Below are positions 271 to 44,108 of a stretch of DNA of 64,000 bases, one piece after another (position 1 is the first letter of the stretch; every line of letters begins with the position of its first letter). A program made the position numbers and the translations under genes. The notes beneath the pieces are model-generated. The model was not told where the DNA came from, searched no databases, and saw only the letters and a program-made list of their open reading frames with translations. This stretch comes from Eledone cirrhosa. Taxonomy: Eukaryota. The stretch is from contig OZ024756.1 of assembly GCA_964016885.1 (NCBI GenBank), positions 18,352,001 through 18,416,000 on the forward strand, written 5' to 3'.

Positions 271-272
<2 letters not shown>

Positions 273-730
273 AAAGTTATATTTAAATTGTTGGGTTACA
301 ACTAGTAAATATTTATAACTGATATAAAAGCACTCGACAAATATTTGGAGTATATTTACAATATTAAAGAAATGGAAACTATATTTATAAAACCATATCT
401 ATTTCATTATATATATTTCAGGGATATCATATTAACAATATGCTATGCCTTCCTCAGACAAAATACAATATAAACAGTTTTATAGATAAATAGATTCGAC
501 ATACCGTAACAACATCGACTTGTATTTGAAAAGGTTGATTTGGTACCAAATCAACCTTTTCAAATACAAGTCGATGTTGTTACGGTATGTCGAATCTATT
601 TATCTATAAAACTGTTTATATTGTATTTTGTCTGAGGAAGGCATAGCATATTGTTAATATGATATCCCTGAAATATATATAATGAAATAGATATGGTTTT
701 ATAAATATAGTTTCCATTTATTTAATATTG

Positions 731-732
<2 letters not shown>
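271..732. mobile_element. Fold-back Penelope-like pLTR relic with a hammerhead ribozyme in each arm
   Basis: Palindrome 357-732 centred on ggt|acc (544/545), about 188-bp arms with one mismatch seen, plus an unpaired extension at 271-356; in (TA)n. Confidence 0.8.
620..694 (+). ncRNA. Type I hammerhead ribozyme (mirror copy on the minus strand at about 395-469)
   Basis: Stem I tattttgt/atgaaata; CTGAGGA 632-638; stem II AGG...CCT enclosing catatt-gtt-aatatg; GAAA 670-673; palindromic stem III tatata; AUA cleavage triplet ending at 681. Confidence 0.75.
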
Positions 733-768
<36 letters not shown>

Positions 769-2269: not shown

Positions 2270-4768
2270 AACTTTGAAATGTTTTGGCCAGTATTGGCCC
2301 AGGCCATGTCTAACTTAATAGCACCACCTGGCGAAGTCTTTCAATTCAGGATTTGGGCACCATGGCCCATTCGAGAAGAGAATTACTGTTTGCGGAGACA
2401 TATCCGGGTGTGGGTGGTTTGTCCGGGATTACTTGGAGGAATTTGTCCAAAGACTTCTTGAATTTTGAGTGGTTAGTTTCTGTTTTGACGTGTCCTGGTG
2501 TGATGTTGAAGAGAGCAGGGCCGATTGAGGTGAAATAATTGTGCCGTATTGTTGTTATGAGTTGCGATTTAGATTTTTGAATGGGACGGATAGCACGGGG
2601 CCCAAGCCTTGGGTGTATCTTGAAGGCGATGCCAACATCATTTGGGCAGTGATGATGGAACATTTTCCACATCATGCAGATAATATAACGCTCACGGCGA
2701 CGTTGGAGTGAGTAAAGTTTCAGGTTTTCCAATCGACCCCAGTAGTCAAGGTCTGACATGCCATCTATCTTTTTCGTGATTGCTCTTTGAGGAGCTTCAA
2801 GTTTCATGATACTTTGTTTCGTGTGGGGAGACCACAGTGGACAACAGTATTCAAGGTGTGGTCGGGCGAAAGTAGAGAAGAGAAGGATAATGGTGCGGGA
2901 ATCTCTCGACTGGAAGGTTCTGAGGATCCAGGAACACATTCTGCGGGCCATGTCAACTTTGCTGCTTATATGCGTGGTCCAGCTTATGTTGCTGTCCACG
3001 GTTACTCCCAAGTCTCTGATGTTGTTAGATGCCACGAGAGTTTCCCCGGAGGGAAGGGAGTACGGGAGTTTCAGAGCATCCTCTTTTCCAAAGTGGATCA
3101 GTTCGAATTTGTCCTCGTTCAGTAACATGTTGTTCTTTTCTGCCCATTGGGTAACAGCCAGTAGGTCTGACTGAAGGCTTATCCGGTCATCCACGCCATT
3201 GATGACCTTTTGGAGCTTGGAATCATCAGCGAAAATTTTAATGTTGCTGTGTTTGATGATGTCAGTGATGTCATTAATATAGATGATGAAGAGAAGTGGG
3301 CCCAACACAGTGCCTTGTGGGACTCCACTACTGACTTTGGCTGGGCTTGATTTGACTCCCTCAACTACAACATGTTGGGTTCTGTTTGACAGGAAGCTCT
3401 TGATCCACTGCAGCAGCTTTCCAGTGACACGAATATTGGACAGCTTTCTCAGTAGAATGTTATGATCAACCCTGTCAAAGGCCTTGCTGAAATCAAGGTA
3501 GATAACATCAGTGTTGGAACCCTCTCCCAAGGCTCTCAAAATGTCATCAAAGTGATGCAGTAGTTGCGTCAGGCAATCCCTTCCATTACGGAATCCATGC
3601 TGGTTGGAGTTCAGCATATTGTTACTCTCAAGGAAGTGGGTCATTCGCGATCTCACCACTCGCTCAAATACCTTAATGATATGAGAGGTGAGTGAGATTG
3701 GACGGTAATTCACGGCAAGGGATTTGTTTCCCTTTTTGAAAACTGGGACAACAGACTGGGATAGAAGGTTTTCTGGCACATATCCAGCATCCAGTGAGTT
3801 CCGCCACAGATTGGCAAGAGGAGAAGCAAGTTGATGTTGACACGCCTTCAGGACACAAGCAGGGAACCTATCGGGACCTACTGCTGAATTATGCTTGATT
3901 TCCTTTATTGCCGCCAAGACATCTGGGGCGCCAAACGTTATGTCCGATAAGGTGTAATGGGGAGTAACATCGCCGATACAGCCCAGATCGGCCATATCAG
4001 GATTGCTGAAAACAGAGCAGTATTGTTTCTGCAGTATCTCACCCATGGTTTTAGCATTGTCTTGAAGAGTGCCATTTTCATCAATTAGAGGGCCAACAGT
4101 AGAGCCAGTGATTTTGTGTTTTTTTGCAAATGAAAAGAACACTTTGGGATTGAGTTTGATCTTCTCAATGGCCCAGGCCTCTTCAGCTCTTCTCTGATTG
4201 TTGATGAGGGACATTATGTTGTTTTGGAGGTTATGTTTTTTAATCTCTAGTGATGAAATGGCAGTCAAGTTGATGTGTTGCTGCTGACAGTATTTCAGCT
4301 TGTTGATTTTTTTTGTTCGTTCTCTTAATTTTTCTGATGAGCGTTTTTCTATTTCTAGGGATTCTGCTCTTAGATTTGTTTATAGTTCTTAATGGGGTGT
4401 GTTTAGCACATATGTTTGTAACAGTGTCCACAAATGTCTGCCAGGACTTTTTGATGTTAGTGGGTGTATGAGTGTGCGTGAAGGACCAGTCGACATGTGC
4501 AAGATCATGACTGATCGCTTCCCAGTTTGCATTGTGGAAATCCATAGCGTCAAACGGATGGACAGGAGAGATGACATTGGGTTTGTATATTGGACGGTGG
4601 AATCTCAGATCACAGAGAACCATGTCATGATCAGAGAGTAGAGTTTTCTCCACTGCAATATTGTGGATATTGTCAGTGTGATTGCTGAAAATTAAGTCTA
4701 GGACGTTTTTGTGGCACCTCGTTGGTTCGAGCACTAGTTGGGATAGGAAGAAATCATCCATGAAGTCA
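2270..4768 (-). mobile_element. CR1-clade LINE, 5'-truncated: end of APE endonuclease, RT and short 3' UTR
   Basis: ORFs 4240..4761 (EPTR..LDL..SDH) and 2346..4268 ([39 protein letters not shown]...NSL) join if one base is removed from the T8 run at 4307-4314. Flanked on both sides by (TA)n. Confidence 0.93.
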
Positions 4769-4790
4769 TATTTATATATATATATATTTA

Positions 4791-4823
<33 letters not shown>

Positions 4824-14362: not shown

Positions 14363-14945
14363 GGTGGCTGCCAACTCGTTTTCGAGTACGGCCACTACTT
14401 TATATCCATGTAGGAGAACCCCTACCGATGCGCTGAACGAGTGTGACTTTTTAGTCCAGCCAGCGCCTTGAAAACTCTGGTACAGACACTACACTTGTGA
14501 CAATTATTGACACATAGTGCTGGGCCCATGGTACCATGTGACAAGTGCAGAGAGATCTCCAGATATAAAGCAATGCCTGTGCCGTGAAGCTTTTATAGTG
14601 AGCAAAGGCACTGCACAAAGCCAGTCCCACTCTCTTAACCAAGATATTTACCAAAAAGAAGAACAAGTCAACATCATTGGATACCATCAGAGTTGCAGGT
14701 GTTATATCAGGAGTTTTCCTTCTCCTAGAATTCTGCTTTGACAAAGGCTAAGGGGTCATCTCTCCCGGTGATTTTGGATGGCCATTGACTCTTAAGAGTT
14801 CCTTTGCCCTTTGGCAGGATGTCCAAAGTCACCCTCCTCACCAAGAAACCTTGGTGGGGTTGCCAGTTTAGTCGCCAACAACCCGACCATGAGACAGGTT
14901 GTACTGGGATACATGTTACCAGTAGCACCAACTGGTGACCTGACA
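14362..14945 (-). mobile_element. Non-coding interspersed repeat, probably an RTE-derived non-autonomous element (relative at 23484-23810)
   Basis: Blocks shared with 23484-23810 (ggctgcc..ctcgtt..gagta.ggcca; gcaatgcctgt..gtgaag; cccactctct; tcaacatcattg; tgacaaagg). The minus strand has ctaggagaaggaaaactc, like RTE 5' UTRs. Confidence 0.55.
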
Positions 14946-14964
14946 TAGATATATATATATATAT

Positions 14965-17435
14965 TATGAGCACATAAGCCAGATTGACTTCCTGCTAGTT
15001 AGGCAGCGGGACAGGCAGATAGTGTCTAATACCAAGGCATACCCTGGGGAAGAATGTACCCCACAGCATAGGTTAGTTGTTAGTGATATCTCAGTAAGCA
15101 AGAGATGGAATGAGACATATAGGAAGGTGTGGAGAAGAAAGGTCTGGAAGCTAAAAGACCTTTCACTAAAATTCAAATTTAGGAAAGCCCTTCAAGATGT
15201 ATATGACGAAAAAGAAGACGATTTAGAGACGTATGACATAGATAATAACTGGAAGTTCTTACGTGACAACTTGCTGAAGGCTACTGATGAAACCTGTGGC
15301 TGGAGCAGAGCTCCAACCAGACAGAGAGTGACCTGGTGGTGGAACAGCAGTGTAGATAAGGCTATTAGAGACAAAAGACTAGCATGGAAGGCTTGGAATA
15401 AGGGTGGGAGTAGGGAAGAATATACAGCCACTAAGAGAGAAGCTAGACGTCAGGTGTACTTAGCACGCAGGGAGGCAGAGAGTAGGAGGTTTGCCAATGT
15501 TCTGCGACGGGAAGATCAGAGGCGTGCGGTGTTCCACATTGCAAGGCAGTGTGTCAATGCAAATCAGGATGTTGTTGGTGATAAATGTGTCCGGGATGAT
15601 GCCGGTGTACTTAGTGTCACGAATGACCAGAAAAAGGAGGCCTGGAAATGTCATTATGAGAGACTGATGAATGTGGAGAACGAATGGGAGAGAGAGAAAT
15701 TACCCTTGGTAGATCCGACAGAGGGACCAGCTATTGAGATTGACGAATATAGGGTCCAAGAGGCGATTAGGGAAATGAAAAATGGTAAGGCGGCCGGACC
15801 ATCGGGAATAGTTGCTGAGATGCTGAAGGCATCAGGGGACGTAGGCACTAAACTGGTTGCACGCATAATCAATCAGGCTATATATGGTGGTGTCATACCC
15901 AAAGACTGGTGCAGCAGTATTCTCATAAATTGCTACAAAGGTAAAGGGGATGCTTTGGAGAGGAGCAATTATAGGGGTATAAAACTGATAGATCAGGTTA
16001 TGAAAGTGGCAGAAAGGATTCTAGCACAACTAATTAGAGAAAGGGTCAAACTAGATGAGATGCAGTTTGGTTTTGTGCCTGGGAAGAGTACAACAGACGC
16101 CCTCTTCTTGGTGAGACAAATGCAAGAGAGGTTCTTAGAGAAGAATAAGCCACTATACTTAGCCTTTGTTGACCTAGAGAAGGCCTTTGATAGGGTACCC
16201 CGATCTGTCATCTGGTGGTCCCTAAGGAAGCTGGGTGTTGAGGAATGGCTTGTAAGGACAGTGCAAACTTTGTACAGAGGTACTCTCAGTAAAGTCAGGG
16301 TAGGAATGGAGTTTAGTGAGGAATTCCAGATACAAGTAGGAGTACATCAGGGTTCGGTCCTCAGCCCGCTCTTGTTCATTATAGTCCTCCAAGCCATAAC
16401 AGAGGAGTTTAAGACTGGCTGTCCATGGGAACTTCTCTATGCTGACGATCTGGCTCTTATGGCAGAATCAGTAGAGGAGCTAGAGAATAAATTCCGGCTA
16501 TGGAAACAGCAGTTGGAAGCAAGAGGACTGAGAGTAAATCTAGCTAAGACAAAAGTGTTGATGAGTAGAAAAGAGGACAAAACCCTGATTCCGTCAGGGA
16601 AATGGCCATGTTCGATATGCAGAAAAGGAACTGGCATAAATTCTATAAAATGCACACAATGTAGGTCCTGGGTACACAAGAGATGTAGCGGGATAGCAGG
16701 CAAACTAACAGGTAGGGAGAAATATGTATGCAGTAGATGTACAGGGAAATTAGACAGTAGAAGTCGCACTGATAGACACATTTTTCAAATGCGAGAGGGC
16801 GCTATAGAAGTGGTGGATAGCTTCCGGTACCTAGGAGATCAGATTAGCATGGGAGGAGGGTGTTCCGAGGCCATAGTATCTAGAATAAGGACGGGTTGGA
16901 AGAAGTTTAGGGAGCTGCTTCCTCTGTTGACGAAGAAGGGTTTCTCCCTGCGTACGAAAGGCCGGTTGTATGATGCCTGTGTGAGGAGCGCGATGCTGCA
17001 TGGTAGTGAGACATGGGCAGCTACCGCAGAAGATATGCGACGGCTGGAGAGAAATGAGGCAAGCATGCTCCGTTGGATGTGCAGTGTAAATGTGCGTGAA
17101 CGACCCAGCATAAATGTGTTGAGAGAGAAACTGTGTCTGAGAGGGATAGAATGTAGTGTACGGGAGAGGAGACTGAGGTGGTATGGACATGTGATGCGCA
17201 TGGAGGATGACCGATGGGTGAAGAAGTGCCAGGAAATGCCAGTTGAAGGAAGACGTGGTAGAGGTAGACCACGAAAAACATGGGCGGAGGTGGTGAGAAC
17301 AGACCTCAGATCATTGAAGCTCACGGTGGAGATGACGAGGGACCGTGACGAGTGGAGAGATGCTGTGCTGAATAAGACCCGTCCCACCCTTGCAAGCAGG
17401 GAAAAGCGGACGTAAAATGATGATGATGATGATGA
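14965..17435 (+). mobile_element. RTE-clade LINE, 5'-truncated, with an uninterrupted ORF (APE end, RT with internal PHD finger) and (ATG)n tail
   Basis: 797-aa ORF 15022..17415, whose frame stays open back to about 14965 (SQIDFLL). Motifs QHRLV, NYRGIKL, FVDLEKAFD, GVHQG, YADD, YLG, RLRWYGHV, GRGRPRKTW. Flanked by (TA)n. Confidence 0.95.
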
Positions 17436-18183: not shown

Positions 18184-18787
18184 AAATATTAAACAAATAA
18201 TGAATAAACAATTCCTTATATTAAACAAAAAAAGTTCATTATTTAACGATCGTTTCTAGGATATATAACGATCTTTCCATGATATCCGGAATACATTGAG
18301 TTCTTCATACGGATTGGACACTACCGTAAACTCTTGGTAGATTTATCTACATATATATATATATATATATATGTGTAAAATGTATATGTAATGTATATAT
18401 ATAATATATATATAAAATGTATATATTTATATATGTGTACATGACCACACAACACCATGTGTGTGTGTGTATATATATATTTATATATATATATATAACA
18501 ATCAGAATGGATGCAGTAAAAACCAGTTAGACCATACTCTGAACATATCACACACACACTATATATATGTATATATATATATATATATTTATTAAAATAA
18601 CAGATTAAAGTTTAAGCAAAGAATCGCTGCTTTCACAGGATCTTCTGAAACTAAAAAAGTCAATCTGTGATATTTCCTCTACGGTTCTTATATATCTGAT
18701 ATATATGTCCTTATCGAGCCCTCTTTGGATTTTAGTCTTCAAATTTATTATTATTACTATTATTATTACTATATATATATATATATT

Positions 18788-19326
18788 CGATATTAACAAA
18801 TGGAAACTATATTTATAAAACCATATTTATTTCATTATACATATTTCAAGGACTCCAAGTTAAATTATGGTGTGCTTTCATCAGATAAAATATAATATAG
18901 ATCAGTTTTATAAATAAATATTGACATACCCTTAAAAAATGCAACCATTACTGTTGGAAGCTCCCGGGAGCTTCCAACAGTAATGGTTGCATTTTTTAAG
19001 GGTATGTCAATATTTATTTATTTATTTATAAAACTGATCAATATTATATTTTATCTGATGGAGCTTCCAACAGTAATGGTTGCATTTTTTAAGGGTATGT
19101 CAATATTTATTTATAAAACTGATCTATATTATATTTTATCTGATGAAAGCACACCATAATTTAACTTGGAGTCCTTGAAATATGTATAATGAAATAAATA
19201 TGGTTTTATAAATATAGTTTCCATTTGTTAATATCGTATTTTTACTCCAAATATTTGTTGAGTGCTTTATATCAGTTATAAAAATATTTGCTTGTTGTAT
19301 TCCAACAATTTAAATAAAACTTTTAC
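18788..19326. mobile_element. Second, diverged fold-back Penelope-like pLTR relic of the same family as 271-732, in opposite orientation
   Basis: Centre ctccc|gggag at 18965/18966; internal ~94-bp duplication; unpaired tail 19237-19326 homologous to the reverse complement of 271-356. Confidence 0.8.
19128..19201 (+). ncRNA. Type I hammerhead ribozyme (mirror copy on the minus strand at about 18825-18896)
   Basis: CTGATGA 19140-19146; stem II AAG...CTT; GAAA 19177-19180; stem III tatgta; AUA; stem I tattttat/atgaaata. Confidence 0.78.
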
Positions 19327-19689
19327 ATATATATATATATATATATAGTGTGTGTGTGTGATATGTAGTGGCTATTTAACCCCAGTTAAGTTCTGACTGA
19401 GCAGACATATAATCCAAGGCATTCCGGCTGTGACCATCCTGTTTTATTTTGCCCAATGTTCAGGGAACCCACATCCATGTTATTGTATATGTTCTCTTCC
19501 TAAGATGGTAAATAGTATGTGCAATTGAGGTAATTTGACTGCTACTTCTAACATGTTAAACGATCATTTAAAGGTTCCCTCATTGGTAGATTGATGTTTT
19601 TTGTAGTGTAGTGTAGTGTAAAAGAAGTGTCATGTGATATAGTAGCATGGTATGTAATGTTGGTGTCATGTGGAATGTAGTTAATGTGT

Positions 19690-22371: not shown

Positions 22372-22462
22372 ATTTAGGAGCAGTTTAGGTATGATACATT
22401 TTATTACTAATTATATCTAAATGTTTCTTCTCTCTTCATAATGTATATATATATATATATAT

Positions 22463-23467
22463 ATATCATCATCATCATTTTACATCCGCTTTTCCCTGCT
22501 TGCAAGGGTGGGACAGGTCCTATTCAGCACAGCATCTCTCCACTTGTCACGGTCCTTCGTCATCTCCACCGTGAGCTTCAGCGATCTGGGTCTGCTCTGA
22601 CCACCTCCGCCCATGTTTTTTGTGGTCTTCCTCTACTGCATCTTCCTTCTACTGGGATTTCTTGGCACTTCTTTACACAATGGTCATCCTCCATGCGCAT
22701 CACATGTCTATACCATCTCAGTCTTCTCTCCCGTTCACTACAACTTATCCCTCTTATACAGTTTCTCTCTCAACTCATCTATGCTTGGTCGTTCAAGCAC
22801 ATTGACATTGCATATCCTCTGCAGTTGTTGCCCATATTTCATTACCATGCAGCATCGTGCATCTCACACAGGCATCATACAACCAGCCTTTCGTACACAG
22901 GGAGAAACCCTTCTTTGTCAACACAGAAAGCAGCTCCCTAAACTTCTTCCAACCCGTCCTTATTCTAGATACTATGGCCTTGGAACACCCTCCTCCCATG
23001 CTAATCTGATCACCTAGGTACTGGAAGCTATCAACCACTTCTATAGAACCCACCTGCATTTGAAAAATGTGTCTATCACTGCAACTTCTACTGTCAAATT
23101 TCCCTGTACATCTACTGCATACGTAGTTTTCCCTACCTGTTAGTTTGCCTGCTATCCCACTACATCTCTTGTGTACCCAAGATCTGCATTATGTACATTT
23201 TATAGAATTTATGCCAGTTCCTTTTCTACACATCGAACATGGCCATTTCCCTGATGGAATCAGAGTTTTGTCCTCTCTTCTACTCATCAACACTTTTGTC
23301 TTAGCTATGTTCACTCTCAGTCCTCTTGATTCCAACTGCTGTTTCCATAGCCAGAATTTATTCTCTAGCTCCTCTACTGATTCTGCTATAAGAACCAGAT
23401 CGTCAGCATAGAGAAGTTCCCATGGGCAGCCAGTCTTAAACTCCTCTGTTATGGCTTGGAGGACTAT
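22463..23467 (-). mobile_element. Older, frameshifted 5'-truncated copy of the RTE-PHD family
   Basis: ORF pieces 23189..23521 (GCPWELLYADD...WPCSMC) and 22793..23059 closely match the 797-aa ORF; the 3' end is the same; (TA)n on both sides. Confidence 0.92.
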
Positions 23468-23818
23468 ATATATATATATATATGATGGCTGCCCCCTCGT
23501 TATTGAGTATGGCCATTGCATGATATAACATTATCAATAATTATCAATTAATGCTATCGTGCAATGCCTGTACGTGAAGATTTTTTTTAAAGTGAGGAAA
23601 GACTGTGCTCTGAGCCAATCCCACTCTCTGAGCAACAGTAGCTATAACCCGAAAAAAAGAAAAGATCAACATCATTGTTAACTACTGAGCCACAGGTTTT
23701 ATAGCGGAGTTATCCCAGTTTCCAGAGTTGCCTTCTAGAAGAATGCCCTGACAAAGGTTTGGGGTCTTTTACTCCCAGTGGTTTAACCACGCAATCGGGT
23801 ATCCAGCCCTATTACATG

Positions 23819-29758: not shown

Positions 29759-29865
29759 TTAAATATATATCGATTGTTTCTCAATTAAAAAAGCTCCATG
29801 GACATTAGCTCAGACGATATATAAAAAAGGGGTATCAATTGAGAAACAGTATTTTGTATATATAT

Positions 29866-30593
29866 ACAGACGACCTTTGGCGTCACACAGTAATACAGAA
29901 GACCTGACTTCCCACGGGTACAAGCAAAGTGGGATCTCAGGAAGTTTAACTAAGAATGTAGGCTTCACATGTAGCAGCTGTGCTGGGACAGCAAGCAGCA
30001 AACGGCCACAGGAAACAAGCACCACCAAACTCTGGGAGGGCTTTATAGAAACAGCAGACAACTTCTGCTACCTAGCTGACCGAATTAGCAGCGGAGGTGG
30101 ATGTTCGGATAGTACAATAACTAGGGTAAGAACGGGATGGAAGAAGTTCAGGGAGGTACTGCCACTGCTAGCTGCAAAAGGCTTTTCCCTCAAAATGAAA
30201 GGCAGACTGTATGATGCGTGTATACAAACAGCAATGTTACATGGTAGTGAGACCTGGGCGCTGTCTGTAGAAGACTTGCGTAGATTAGAAAGAAATGAAG
30301 CCAGCATGATCCGATGGTTGTGTAATATACGCGAACGGCAAAGCATAAATGAATTGAGAGAGAGATTGAGTATAAGAGGAATCAAATGCTGCGTGCAGCA
30401 GAGGAGAAAAAAGCACCCAGCACTCACTGTAAATGAGGTTGGTATTAGGAAGGGCATCCAGCTGTAGAAATCAAGCCAGAATCAGTTCCCGTATGAGCAA
30501 GCCAAGGTCAGCTGACAGGACAATGCCCACAACAGGACAACCCGTCTAACCCATGCTAGCGTGGAAGAACGGACGTAAAACAGTGATGATGAT
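29866..30593 (+). mobile_element. Diverged RTE-PHD fragment joined to a SINE-type 3' end
   Basis: ORF 29877..30467 (CSSC...FCYL...GWKKFRE...LHGSETW) switches at about 30405 to aaaagcacccag...ggaagggcatccagctgtagaaa...ggacgtaaaacagtgatgatgat. Confidence 0.8.
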
Positions 30594-31460
30594 ATACACA
30601 CACAAACTATACGGATAAAATATCTTTTTATTACTTATCTCATTAGCTCTTTTTGATTACCAACTGTAAGGGGTATTCGATACTTCCCCTAGTCTGTCAT
30701 GGATTACTAGCTTTATGCGGAGTTTAAATTGAATAAATAACTATAAAAGCATCAAAATTTGTTTTCACTCTCAAAAGCATCATTATGTTGGAAGGGAGAT
30801 AATTCATATCCTCTGCCAAAGCCGACTGACAGACTTATATATCATTCAAGTGTATTTGTTGTCGTTCTTGTTATTTAGCTTCAGTTTCTACTTGATAAAA
30901 TACCTTCCAGCTTTGATCATACACTTGCAACTTGATCGTGTGTATCTATATTAAAATACCTTCCAGCCGTGACCATTCTGTTGTTTTTGCTATATGTTCC
31001 CCACCTCTTTTAAAACTGTACGTTGTGATTTGGTAGGGATTTCACTATTAGTTTTAGCCGGTTGAGAGACCACGTAGAAGCGCCTTGTATTAAGAAGGTA
31101 TAGGCGGTGAATTGTCAGAGTCGTGAGAACGTCAGGTAGAATGTTTTGCGGTATTTGTTTCGGATCTTTGCATTTTCTGGGCTCAACTTAACCTTTCATC
31201 CTTTCGAGGTCGATAAAAAAGTACTATTCCAGTACTGGGGTTGATTCTTCCTCTATATCTCTTTCTCAATCTTATCTCACTCATTCTAATTTATTTAAAC
31301 ATTAGCAAAATATTTAATATATAAAATCTCACAATGTCATGAAAGGCCATTGCCATTATATAAAAATAATTGAACAGGATCTAATAAAAACAAAACACAC
31401 TATTACAGGGAAAGGAAGAAAATGAAAAAGAGAGAAAAAGAGAGTAACGACAGAAAGTAT

Positions 31461-32530
31461 CTAGCCCACACTGTAGAGTGGTCGTGTAGGTGTCATGACA
31501 AAAAGCACCCAGCCCACACTGTAGAGTGGTCGTGTAGGTGTCATGACAAAAAGCACCCAGCCCACACTGTAGAGTGGTCGTGTAGGTGTCATGACAAAAA
31601 GCACCCAGCCCACACTGTAAAGTGGTCGTGTAGGAGTCATGACAAAAAGCACCCAGTCCACATTGTAGAGTGGTCGTCTAGGTGTCATGACAAAAAGCAC
31701 CCAGCCCACATTGTAGAGTGGTCGTATAGTTGTCATGACAAAAAGCACCCAGCCCACACTGTAGAGTGGTCGTATAGGTGTCATGACAAAAAGCACCCAG
31801 CCCACACTGTAAAGTGGTCGTGTAGGTGTCATGACAAAAAGCACCCAGCCCACATTGTAGAGTGGTTGTATAGTTGTCATGACAAAAAGCACCCAGCCCA
31901 CACTGTAGAGTGGTCGTATAGGTGTCATGACAAAAAGCACCCAGCCCACATTGTAAAGTGGTCGTATAGGTGTCATGACAAAAAGCACCCAGCCCACATT
32001 GTAGAGTGGTCGTATAGGTGTCATGACAAAAAGCACCCAGCCCACATTGTAGAGTGGTCGTATAGTTGTCATGACAAAAAGCACCCAGCCCACACTGTAA
32101 AGTGGTCGTGTAGGTGTCATGACAAAAAGCACCCAGCCCACACTGTAGAGTGGTCGTATAGGTGTCATGACAAAAAGCACCCAGCCCACACTGTAGAGTG
32201 GTCGTATAGGTGTCATGACAAAAAGCACCCAGCCCACACTGTAGAGTGGTCGTATAGGTGTCATGACAAAAAGCACCCAGCCCACACTGTAAAGTGGTCG
32301 TGTAGGTGTCATGACAAAAAGCACCCAGCGCACACTGTAGAGTGGTCGTATAGGTGTCATGACAAAAAGCACCCAGCCCACACTGTAGAGTGGTCGTGTA
32401 GGTGTCATGACAAAAAGCACCCAGCCCACACTGTAAAGTGGTTGTGTATGTGTCATGACAAAAAGCACCCAGCACACACTGTAAAGTGGTCGTGTAGGTG
32501 TCATGACAAAAAGCACCCAGCGCACACTGT
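31461..32530 (+). repeat. 48-bp tandem array (~22 units) expanded inside a SINE; the normal SINE 3' end follows at 32530-32690
   Basis: Unit gtcatgacaaaaagcacccagcccacactgtagagtggtcgtgtaggt; the last unit runs into gaagggcatccagctgtagaaa...gatgttaaacgatgatgatg. Confidence 0.95.
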
Positions 32531-32739
32531 AAATGTTGTTGGCATTACGAAGGGCATCCAGCTGTAGAAACCAATCCCAAATCAGTTCTGTGTGAGCAAA
32601 ACACGTTCTTCCGACCTGATCTCTCACAAAGGGATAGCCCCTTCTATCCAAGCTAGCGTGGAAAATGGATGTTAAACGATGATGATGACCAATCGGTGGA
32701 AGAAAGGGTGGGCAGAGAGGCAGTCACTCCACCCCAGTC

Positions 32740-43711: not shown

Positions 43712-44108
43712 ATCATCATCATCGTTTAGCATCCATTTTCCATGCTAGCATGGGTAGGACAGGCTGTCCCTTTGTTTCTATAGCTGGATGCCCTTCCACA
43801 TTTACAGTGTGTGTTGGGTGCTTTTTGTCATGACACCTACACGACCACTTTATAATGTGGACTGGGCGTTTTTTGTTGCGACACCTACACGACCACTTTA
43901 TAATGTGGACTGGGCGTTTTTTGTTGCGACACCTACACGACCACTTTATAATGTGGACTGGACGTTTTTTGTTGTGACACCTACACGACCACTTTATAAT
44001 GTGGACTGGACGTTTTTTGTTGTGACACAGAGAGGATTGGACGCTTTTGTTGTGACACCTACACAACCACTTTACAGAGTGGACTGGGCTCTTTTGTCGT
44101 GACATACG
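43712..44108 (-). repeat. Second SINE-internal 48-bp array (~5-6 units) with SINE tail, in the last SLC6 intron
   Basis: Period 48 (acacctac at 43833, 43881, 43929, 43977); homologous to the 31461 unit. Confidence 0.9.

Follow-up and report, generated by a model that had tools for sequence, protein, structure and literature searches.

The segment at positions 18788 to 19326 of the window, by which we mean the whole 64,000-nt stretch of Eledone cirrhosa DNA analysed here, is derived from a Hydra-clade Penelope-like element (PLE), two fragments of whose terminal repeat (pLTR) lie head to head within a (TA)n target (Table 1). The identity of the family, the two fixed 3' ends (E1 and E2), the presence of one of each per insertion, the sharp boundary at a CACT motif and the variants common to both arms can all be read directly from the copies. 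They suggest a model, which we favour as probable, in which a single element RNA would have been reverse-transcribed from two fixed sites, with both cut ends of the (TA)n target as primers.

Self-alignment confirmed the fold-back, the arms and the asymmetric tail that an earlier note on this DNA had described. The short arm (~18788-18967, minus strand) matches 19060-19239 at 99.4% identity over 175 nt, the sole mismatch lying towards the outer end, and the right arm continues for 87 nt to 19326, (TA)n being reached at both ends of the insertion. The middle piece (18964/18967-19060) duplicates 19060-19145 at 90.4% identity, with an 8-nt (TTTA)2 insertion and one substitution, and breaks after CTGATG, in agreement with the earlier description of a run at ~18966-19060 that stops inside this motif and restarts in the right arm. 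Counted from the inferred transcript start (+1), the left arm and the middle piece begin at +6, with CCGG in common, and the right arm at +9. The CCGG at the fold-back centre lies 6 nt inside a conserved boundary, and identical CCGG junctions are present at two further loci (C1:155430496/155430688 and C1:139125678). The insertion carries two complete hammerhead motifs on opposite strands, and the same-sense middle piece ends inside the core; the head-to-tail arrangement of a retrozyme is thus not found.

Table 1. Positions of the features of the insertion at 18788-19326 and of related features (window coordinates unless a locus is named).
Feature	Position	Strand	Description
Left flank (target)	18770..18787	.	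(TA)n; target-site duplication not discernible within the microsatellite
Short arm	18788..18967	-	Tail-less pLTR copy, inferred transcript +6 to E1; boundary seen by self-alignment and sampled ends
Hammerhead of short arm	core CTGATGA starts 18884	-	
Fold-back centre	18964..18967	.	Palindromic CCGG common to both arms (4-nt microhomology), 6 nt downstream of inferred transcription start
Junction insert	18964..19060	+	Incomplete copy, +6 to CTGATG; expanded by (TTTA)2, one substituted base
Long arm	19060..19326	+	pLTR copy from +9, across hammerhead and E1, to 3' end E2
Type I hammerhead motif	19132..19196	+	Stem I 19132-19139/19189-19196; core 19140-19146; GAAA 19177-19180
Hammerhead stems II and III			Stem II 3 bp, C-C mismatch and distal helix; stem III 2 bp, near-palindromic loop
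Tail	19240..19326	+	87 nt, E1 to E2
Right flank (target)	19327..19347	.	(TA)n
Copy 1 (sister-subfamily insertion)	271..733	.	Tail arm on minus strand; centre TA at 544-545, +3/+4 of inferred transcript
+1 hairpin	L129:5685-5733, L066:6212-6260, L365:523-569 and others		Predicted by folding

The diverged relative that had been reported at 271-732 in opposite orientation is likewise present, as an insertion of a sister subfamily (copy 1). It forms a palindrome at 351-738 (99% in self-alignment) with the tail on the left, hence the opposite orientation; its long arm is 84% identical to that of 18788-19326, and the short arms stop at the same point, as had been claimed. The cores read CTGATGA at 19140-19146 and CTGAGGA at 632-638 in copy 1, so that the reported restriction of core differences to N7 was correct, as was the change in stem II (AAG/CTT as compared to AGG/CCT).

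Neither insertion stands alone. In its own 3.0-Gb assembly, the family accounts for ~19,800 hammerhead motif matches in several subfamilies, with exact-pattern matches numbering 3,963 for the window subfamily, 3,158 for the sister subfamily and 12,690 for the others as compared to 0 for the reversed controls, so that the pattern is not a chance one. The autonomous partner encoding RT and GIY-YIG, a search for which the earlier note had proposed, was found: one locus (L066) consists of a pLTR, a 736-aa ORF, a 3' region of ~1.3 kb and a second pLTR, plus an inverted copy. Partners of the window subfamily (L129, L130, L134, L135 and L142) show ~75-88% protein identity to the 736-aa ORF, and no fully open ORF of this subfamily was present among the 14 loci fetched. 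A partial pLTR tandem with an adjacent inverted 5'-truncated copy and a one-ended tail is seen at L066, L068, L129, L130 and L135. In full-length elements the hammerhead is in sense orientation to the ORF, and the tail corresponds to the 5' leader, the ORF starting ~48 nt past it. Full-length matches at 96% identity or more numbered 61 among the matches listed, 50 of these 61 being free of stop codons. With no fewer than 50 full-length open ORFs at 96-99% identity, the sister subfamily appears to have expanded very recently or to be expanding still.

An ORF with RT and GIY-YIG, the pLTR architecture and the hammerhead motif together identify the element as an EN+ PLE. The RT residues D258 and Y352/D354/D355 and the EN residues Y616, Y629, G631, R640, H644, E699 and N711 are invariant in 73 homologs. 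The protein P0001 carries the motifs RWR, DKT, CNCRDRSKC (a CxCx5C linker), YRDD, CDLC..E and CKH, with one Cys between the VY and YVG motifs and a GIY-YIG core without the CCHH cysteine pair; across 73 aligned proteins, DK[TS] and CxxC..E were each found in 73, the C-terminal CxH in 70, RW[KR] in 60 and CxCx5C in 50. The Hydra clade has been defined, in the portion of that study available, by DKT for DKG, an RWK-type motif, the CxCx5C linker, CxxC and CxH flanking E/N, and the lack of CCHH (PMC8557442). By its motifs, rather than by an RT phylogeny with named references, the element is a member of this clade, and an assignment to Neptune, Nematis or Naiad was rejected on the basis of the C-terminal EN, CxCx5C, DKT and lack of CCHH. 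Atlas neighbours of the partner protein carry RVT_1 and GIY-YIG (13-50% of members, in several clusters). A Pfam search with the partner ORF and two homologs gave no significant match, and neither did a PDB search with the single partner sequence give any match; a PDB profile search returned weak RT matches only (retron RT, E=0.013). The only species-named homologs came from Argonauta hians (36-42% identity). Among the entries in the part of the PMC8557442 supplement available are a Hydra family from cephalopods, hammerheads, targeting of (TA)n and an inverted copy truncated at its 5' end, and the available text of an octopus repeat annotation (PMC13282606) makes no mention of hammerheads or the Hydra clade.

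To evaluate the hammerhead, 17 variants picked by eye from 59 were aligned with the window copy, giving a set of 18 that leans to intact subfamily representatives. Paired cells amounted to 93.8% in the 18 variants as compared to 86.1% in shuffles (0/500 as high), and 8 pairs, 6 of them in stem II, changed on both sides (11/500 shuffles), all counts being uncorrected for phylogeny; slid controls of the same alignment paired at 39-54%. Covariation of stem II pairs, measured as pair counts against shuffles, thus supports the earlier claim of structural selection on the hammerhead, which would have acted in the parent element. Much of the 'diverged loop II' of the earlier note is paired, as most of it continues stem II past a C-C mismatch. 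This mismatch, at the fourth stem II position (C19150 and C19173 in the window), is invariant in all 18 aligned variants while its flanking pairs covary, which makes it a candidate tertiary or protein contact. The core of the window copy is intact, and A19170 breaks one distal stem II pair. Stem III consists of two pairs with a palindromic or near-palindromic loop across the variants; a short stem III with a palindromic loop is the dimer-type layout described for PLE hammerheads in the available part of PMC4209133, and related PLE motifs are described as cleaving weakly, as dimers or with protein (available portions of PMC4209133 and PMC11167929). Cleavage is predicted after A19188. Rfam at gathering thresholds returned no match in the whole window, and the monomer fold was no better than shuffles (z 0.36), so that the energy of single-sequence folding gives the hammerhead no support. 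A strongly diverged subfamily (L359:498-572) has stem II GTT/AGT and another stem I, with the core, the C-C mismatch and stem III kept.

A second, unrelated head-to-head stub (18597-18770) lies directly to the left of 18788-19326. It contains a minus-strand hammerhead-like motif whose core reads CAGAAGA, with A instead of U4, and which has stem I AGTTT/AAACT, stem III AGCA/TGCT and a stem II that is partly deleted in the window copy. The CAGAAGA-type pattern gave 20,001 matches, with A in 100/100 among the matches listed, and a fixed core change in so many copies may be noteworthy for cleavage. At two loci of such stubs, a Hydra-like EN coding region with 39-42% identity to P0001 lies upstream. 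A low-complexity inverted match (catatc-(AC)n-(TA)n; 18544-18570 and 19338-19365), which may be due to chance, brackets both stubs. Elsewhere in the window, the long open frames at 2346-4809 (minus), 14944-17415 (plus), 22411-23188 and 29763-30481 give translations that resemble LINE-type endonuclease/RT fragments, the segments 16380-17038 and 22810-23468 are 93% complementary, and two tandem arrays (31374-32723 and 43719-44108) have units of ~19 and ~18 codons in translation.

We next consider the 3' ends, sampled in the window and sister subfamilies by taking the first 100 hits of each in order on contig C1, an exact 30-mer being required. The window subfamily yielded 49 E1, 49 E2, 1 read-through and 1 other end, and the sister subfamily 47 E1, 45 E2, 6 read-through and 2 other ends (n=100 each). 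The earlier claim of reproducible arm ends therefore holds: the ends are non-random and fall at E1 or E2 in both sampled subfamilies. E1 and E2 lie 87 nt apart, a TA repeat adjoins 185 of the 191 sampled E1/E2 ends, and the element sequence past both E1 and E2 consists of TA-like bases. Among 52 divergent pairs, 5 with a read-through arm were set aside, and 45 of the remaining 47 with two terminal arms combined one E1 with one E2 (p=7e-13 for 45/46 pairs in the contig C1 sample), the exceptions being one E2+E2 and one E1+other. A further 14 pairs with an anchor-less partner all obeyed the same rule. Four among 14 E2 arms started at E1 (~+101/102), two of them apparently representing one duplicated locus and one being fuzzy, a number too small to build on.

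At their 5' side, arms are either long or break off close to an initiator-like CACT that lies 88-91 nt before the core, either precisely at its A or slightly within it. In the window subfamily (n=100), 15 of the 5' ends fall exactly at this A, 27 within 3 nt and 38 at +1 to +11, as compared to 1 in the 11 nt upstream; the edge is less sharp in the sister subfamily (22 vs 8 in the 11 nt upstream). Genome-wide, 673 departures from the element occur just before +1 and 103 one base earlier. A G precedes +1 in 38/100 copies of the window subfamily and 43/100 of a third subfamily (hand counts) as compared to 9/100 in a control (p=1.7e-6) whose G share is lowered by the point mutants it contains, and to 13-20% expected from the partner arm. 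In about half of 11 such junctions inspected the partner arm could itself supply the G, so that the extra G is only suggestive; in full-length L1 insertions, an extra 5' G marks cap copying (available portion of PMC11702581). In the third subfamily (s3) the boundary lies 64 nt from the core, with TATAAA at -31; the sister, s4 and s6 subfamilies have a pyrimidine tract in place of a TATA box, and the window subfamily has a weak AT-rich match. An initiator-like TCACT in a pLTR was noted earlier (PMC3846280), and the Penelope start site lies within its pLTR (PMC8557442), according to the portions of these papers available.

The CACT adenine is thus likely to be the capped transcript start, and the 5' boundary would locate a candidate promoter. 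That arms end at this probable transcript start explains the position of the fold-back centre, which the earlier note had placed ~80-90 nt upstream of the core: the conserved position stands, but the distance does not, being 64 nt in another subfamily. A fixed core-to-centre distance was accordingly rejected, as it amounts to 64, 78-79, 88 or 90-91 nt depending on the subfamily, in step with the initiator-like motif. In each of the subfamilies that were folded, a hairpin with the closing sequence ACTRCC/GGTATGT is predicted to start at the inferred +1, its internal helices differing among them.

The two arms of an insertion resemble each other in extent and in sequence. The 45 E1/E2 pairs comprised 26 short-short, 18 long-long and 1 mixed combination (p=1e-11). 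In 9 pairs both arms reached equally far 5'; in 17 the E1 (tail-less) arm was the longer on this side, and in 5 the E2 arm; in 17 of the 22 unequal pairs the tail-less arm thus extends further 5' while the other arm carries the tail, so that neither is nested in the other. Arms of the same insertion differed from each other less than unrelated arms did (1.7 vs 5.5 and 2.6 vs 5.2 differences per 150 nt). The rare variant A19170/T18854 occurs in both window arms and in 0/100 sampled copies; it accounts for ~0.2% of depth in sequencing run X1 and is present at locus L014.

The junctions, in turn, differ from copy to copy, so that the palindrome is not inherited as a unit. Among 110 short arms, the neighbour is an inverted piece of pLTR in 84, an inverted piece of the element body in 3 and a TA repeat in 10, while 2 have a direct body match and 11 no match; a direct pLTR copy adjoins none of the 110. 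Short inverted or copied fillers are frequent at the junctions of the sampled insertions. In our reading, the internal junction of the window copy (18964-19060) arose once, during joining or through a duplication at a later time, rather than as a result of ribozyme action, and its insert likely arose by fill-in or snap-back synthesis during joining.

These observations can be arranged into a sequence of steps, all of them read from finished insertions. The GIY-YIG endonuclease would cut both (TA)n strands, whereupon the two DNA ends would prime at E1 and at E2 (87 nt further 3'), respectively, each by a few bases of TA-like microhomology and with E1 priming in the lead. With priming in the upstream pLTR, synthesis of both cDNAs would end on reaching the capped 5' end, ~88 nt before the core, or slightly before it, giving stubs, and priming in the downstream pLTR would give long arms. 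The cDNA 3' ends would then anneal by microhomology (here CCGG), at times with a copied filler (here 18964-19060), and the hammerhead would be carried along uncleaved, the ends of copies not being set by it. For the anole Poseidon protein, the available portion of PMC11167929 describes that both strands are cut and extended in vitro from two internal start sites matching the tail, that the protein is predicted to be a dimer, and that uncleaved RNA is used, ribozyme cleavage not being needed. In its strictest form, with a single capped RNA and a dimeric enzyme that starts obligatorily once at E1 and once at E2, we give the model an even chance; if true, obligatory twin priming would give exactly one tail per insertion and stubs from the upstream pLTR bounded by the transcription start, and one mechanism would cover inverted pLTRs, the tail at one end only and the many short copies with a hammerhead that are found in animal genomes.

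Several points speak against such twin priming. If both primings use one RNA, the cDNA started at E1 would have to be displaced by the enzyme that started at E2, and the E2 arm reaches further 5' in 5 of the 22 unequal pairs. Conversion between arms after insertion could also equalise their variants. Moreover, common variants and matched arm length show a single template but fit equally well with fold-back copying, in which a strand folds at its end and copies itself into a hairpin or an inverted dimer, an endonuclease trimming one end to E1 and leaving the tail at the other. This course, which we regard as unlikely, would account just as well for palindromic junctions and agrees with the short inverted fillers common there. 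Self-priming on an antisense template was proposed by Arkhipova et al. 2013 (PMC3846280), and PMC8557442 ascribes the tail to endonuclease resolution, as far as the available portions of both go. However, a single target-primed cDNA would give a nested second arm, whereas 17 of the 22 unequal pairs are un-nested; the initiator boundary on the sense strand and the extra G fit a sense, capped template, and TA-like microhomology with the target is found at both ends.

Displacement would be avoided if each enzyme subunit used its own RNA from the same source locus, with the same priming sites and a 5' boundary due to an RT stop at the +1 hairpin. Transcripts of one active locus would have variants in common, and folding of 12 segments, two of them incomplete, predicted the ACTRCC/GGTATGT-closed hairpin from +1 in the remaining 10. 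We nevertheless consider two RNAs rather improbable, as the use of the same pLTR in 44/45 pairs and the single use of each site are left unexplained, the 3' side of the hairpin, ~45 nt downstream, is where a polymerase would encounter it, hairpin stability is mostly unremarkable (z +0.8 to -1.8, one -4.7, mostly within the shuffle range), and a start site is indicated by the extra G together with the TATA at -31. A role of the ribozyme itself appears very improbable, be it that the core triggers a template switch or break at CTGATG, as the earlier note had suggested, or that the stubs form a non-autonomous retrozyme family able to propagate itself. It is true that the middle piece stops within the core, and non-LTR retrozymes derive from PLE pLTRs (available portion of bioRxiv 10.64898/2026.07.22.740005). 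Yet the break lies ~43 nt upstream of the predicted cleavage site, a similar junction occurs in 0/200 other arms, and 0/83 partner-arm 5' ends fall within 3 nt of that site, on which ground ribozyme cleavage was rejected as the source of the 5' ends; the junctions that vary by copy, and their inverted rather than direct pLTR neighbours, speak against a retrozyme.

Taken together, we describe a new family of Hydra-clade PLEs, probably inserted by priming from both target ends, whose element class, clade, inverted pLTR, one-sided tail and hammerhead are already known, so that the architecture is not a new class. The single stub is ordinary, one of thousands of truncated PLE insertions, and its value is statistical, in that a young and very abundant family yields rules that are sharp and open to testing. 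Each insertion combines an E1 with an E2 end, its two arms come from the same pLTR, and the 5' boundary coincides with an initiator-like motif and an extra G. Such regularities fit a template of sense RNA, capped and uncleaved, better than they fit the proposals of antisense self-priming or of cleave-and-circularise that have been published, and the family, with at least 50 open ORFs and ~20,000 motif copies, would suit the testing of twin priming. The available text of PMC8557442 names the origin of PLE tandem and inverted structures and of the tail as an open problem. A literature search, with subscription papers (including older Penelope work) outside its scope, found no description of the one-E1-one-E2 rule, of PLE twin priming or of cap-bounded stubs.

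The comparisons below extend to the portions of the cited studies that were available. Like the Hydra clade of C-terminal EN+ PLEs (Craig et al. 2021, PMC8557442; Hydra-1_Obim, Penelope-13_HM), the family has a single RT + GIY-YIG ORF with RW[R/K], DKT, the CxCx5C linker and CxxC/CxH around E/N, no CCHH, a (TA)n target and a pLTR hammerhead; the inverted 5'-truncated copy is listed there for Penelope-13_HM, and the non-Watson-Crick N-U first pair of stem II recurs in the listed hammerheads. It differs in a unit of 3.8-4.1 kb ('generally <3 kb' there), a tail of 87 nt (30-40 bp there) and, from the clade as listed, in its ~19,800 motif matches, at least 50 open full-length ORFs and RWR for RWK. 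Unlike the Hydra-1_oBim hammerhead, that found here has a stem II of 3 bp with the invariant C-C and a distal helix and a stem III of 2 bp; the stem II with the invariant C-C mismatch is a new variant.

The closest mechanistic parallel is PAc (Poseidon of Anolis carolinensis; Frangieh et al. 2024, PMC11167929), with two internal RT starts that define the tail, an AT-rich target, both strands cut and extended, and dispensable ribozyme cleavage, features that are inferred here from the insertions. PAc belongs to another clade and its start sites lie inside the ORF, whereas those described here lie in the 5' leader, and the available portion of that study contains no assignment of one site per end, no explanation of inverted arms and no 5'-end map. 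With LINE-1 twin priming (PMC11702581) the family would have in common two primings per RNA, as inferred here, together with microhomology joining and the extra 5' G; the second priming of L1 is variable and its arms barely overlap, in contrast to the fixed sites, near-full overlap and near-perfect palindromes seen here. Finally, the stubs resemble non-LTR retrozymes (bioRxiv 10.64898/2026.07.22.740005) in being short, non-coding and pLTR-derived, with a type I hammerhead and a short palindromic stem III, but the latter are head-to-tail tandems with at least two same-sense ribozymes, whereas the stubs are head-to-head, with a new junction each time.
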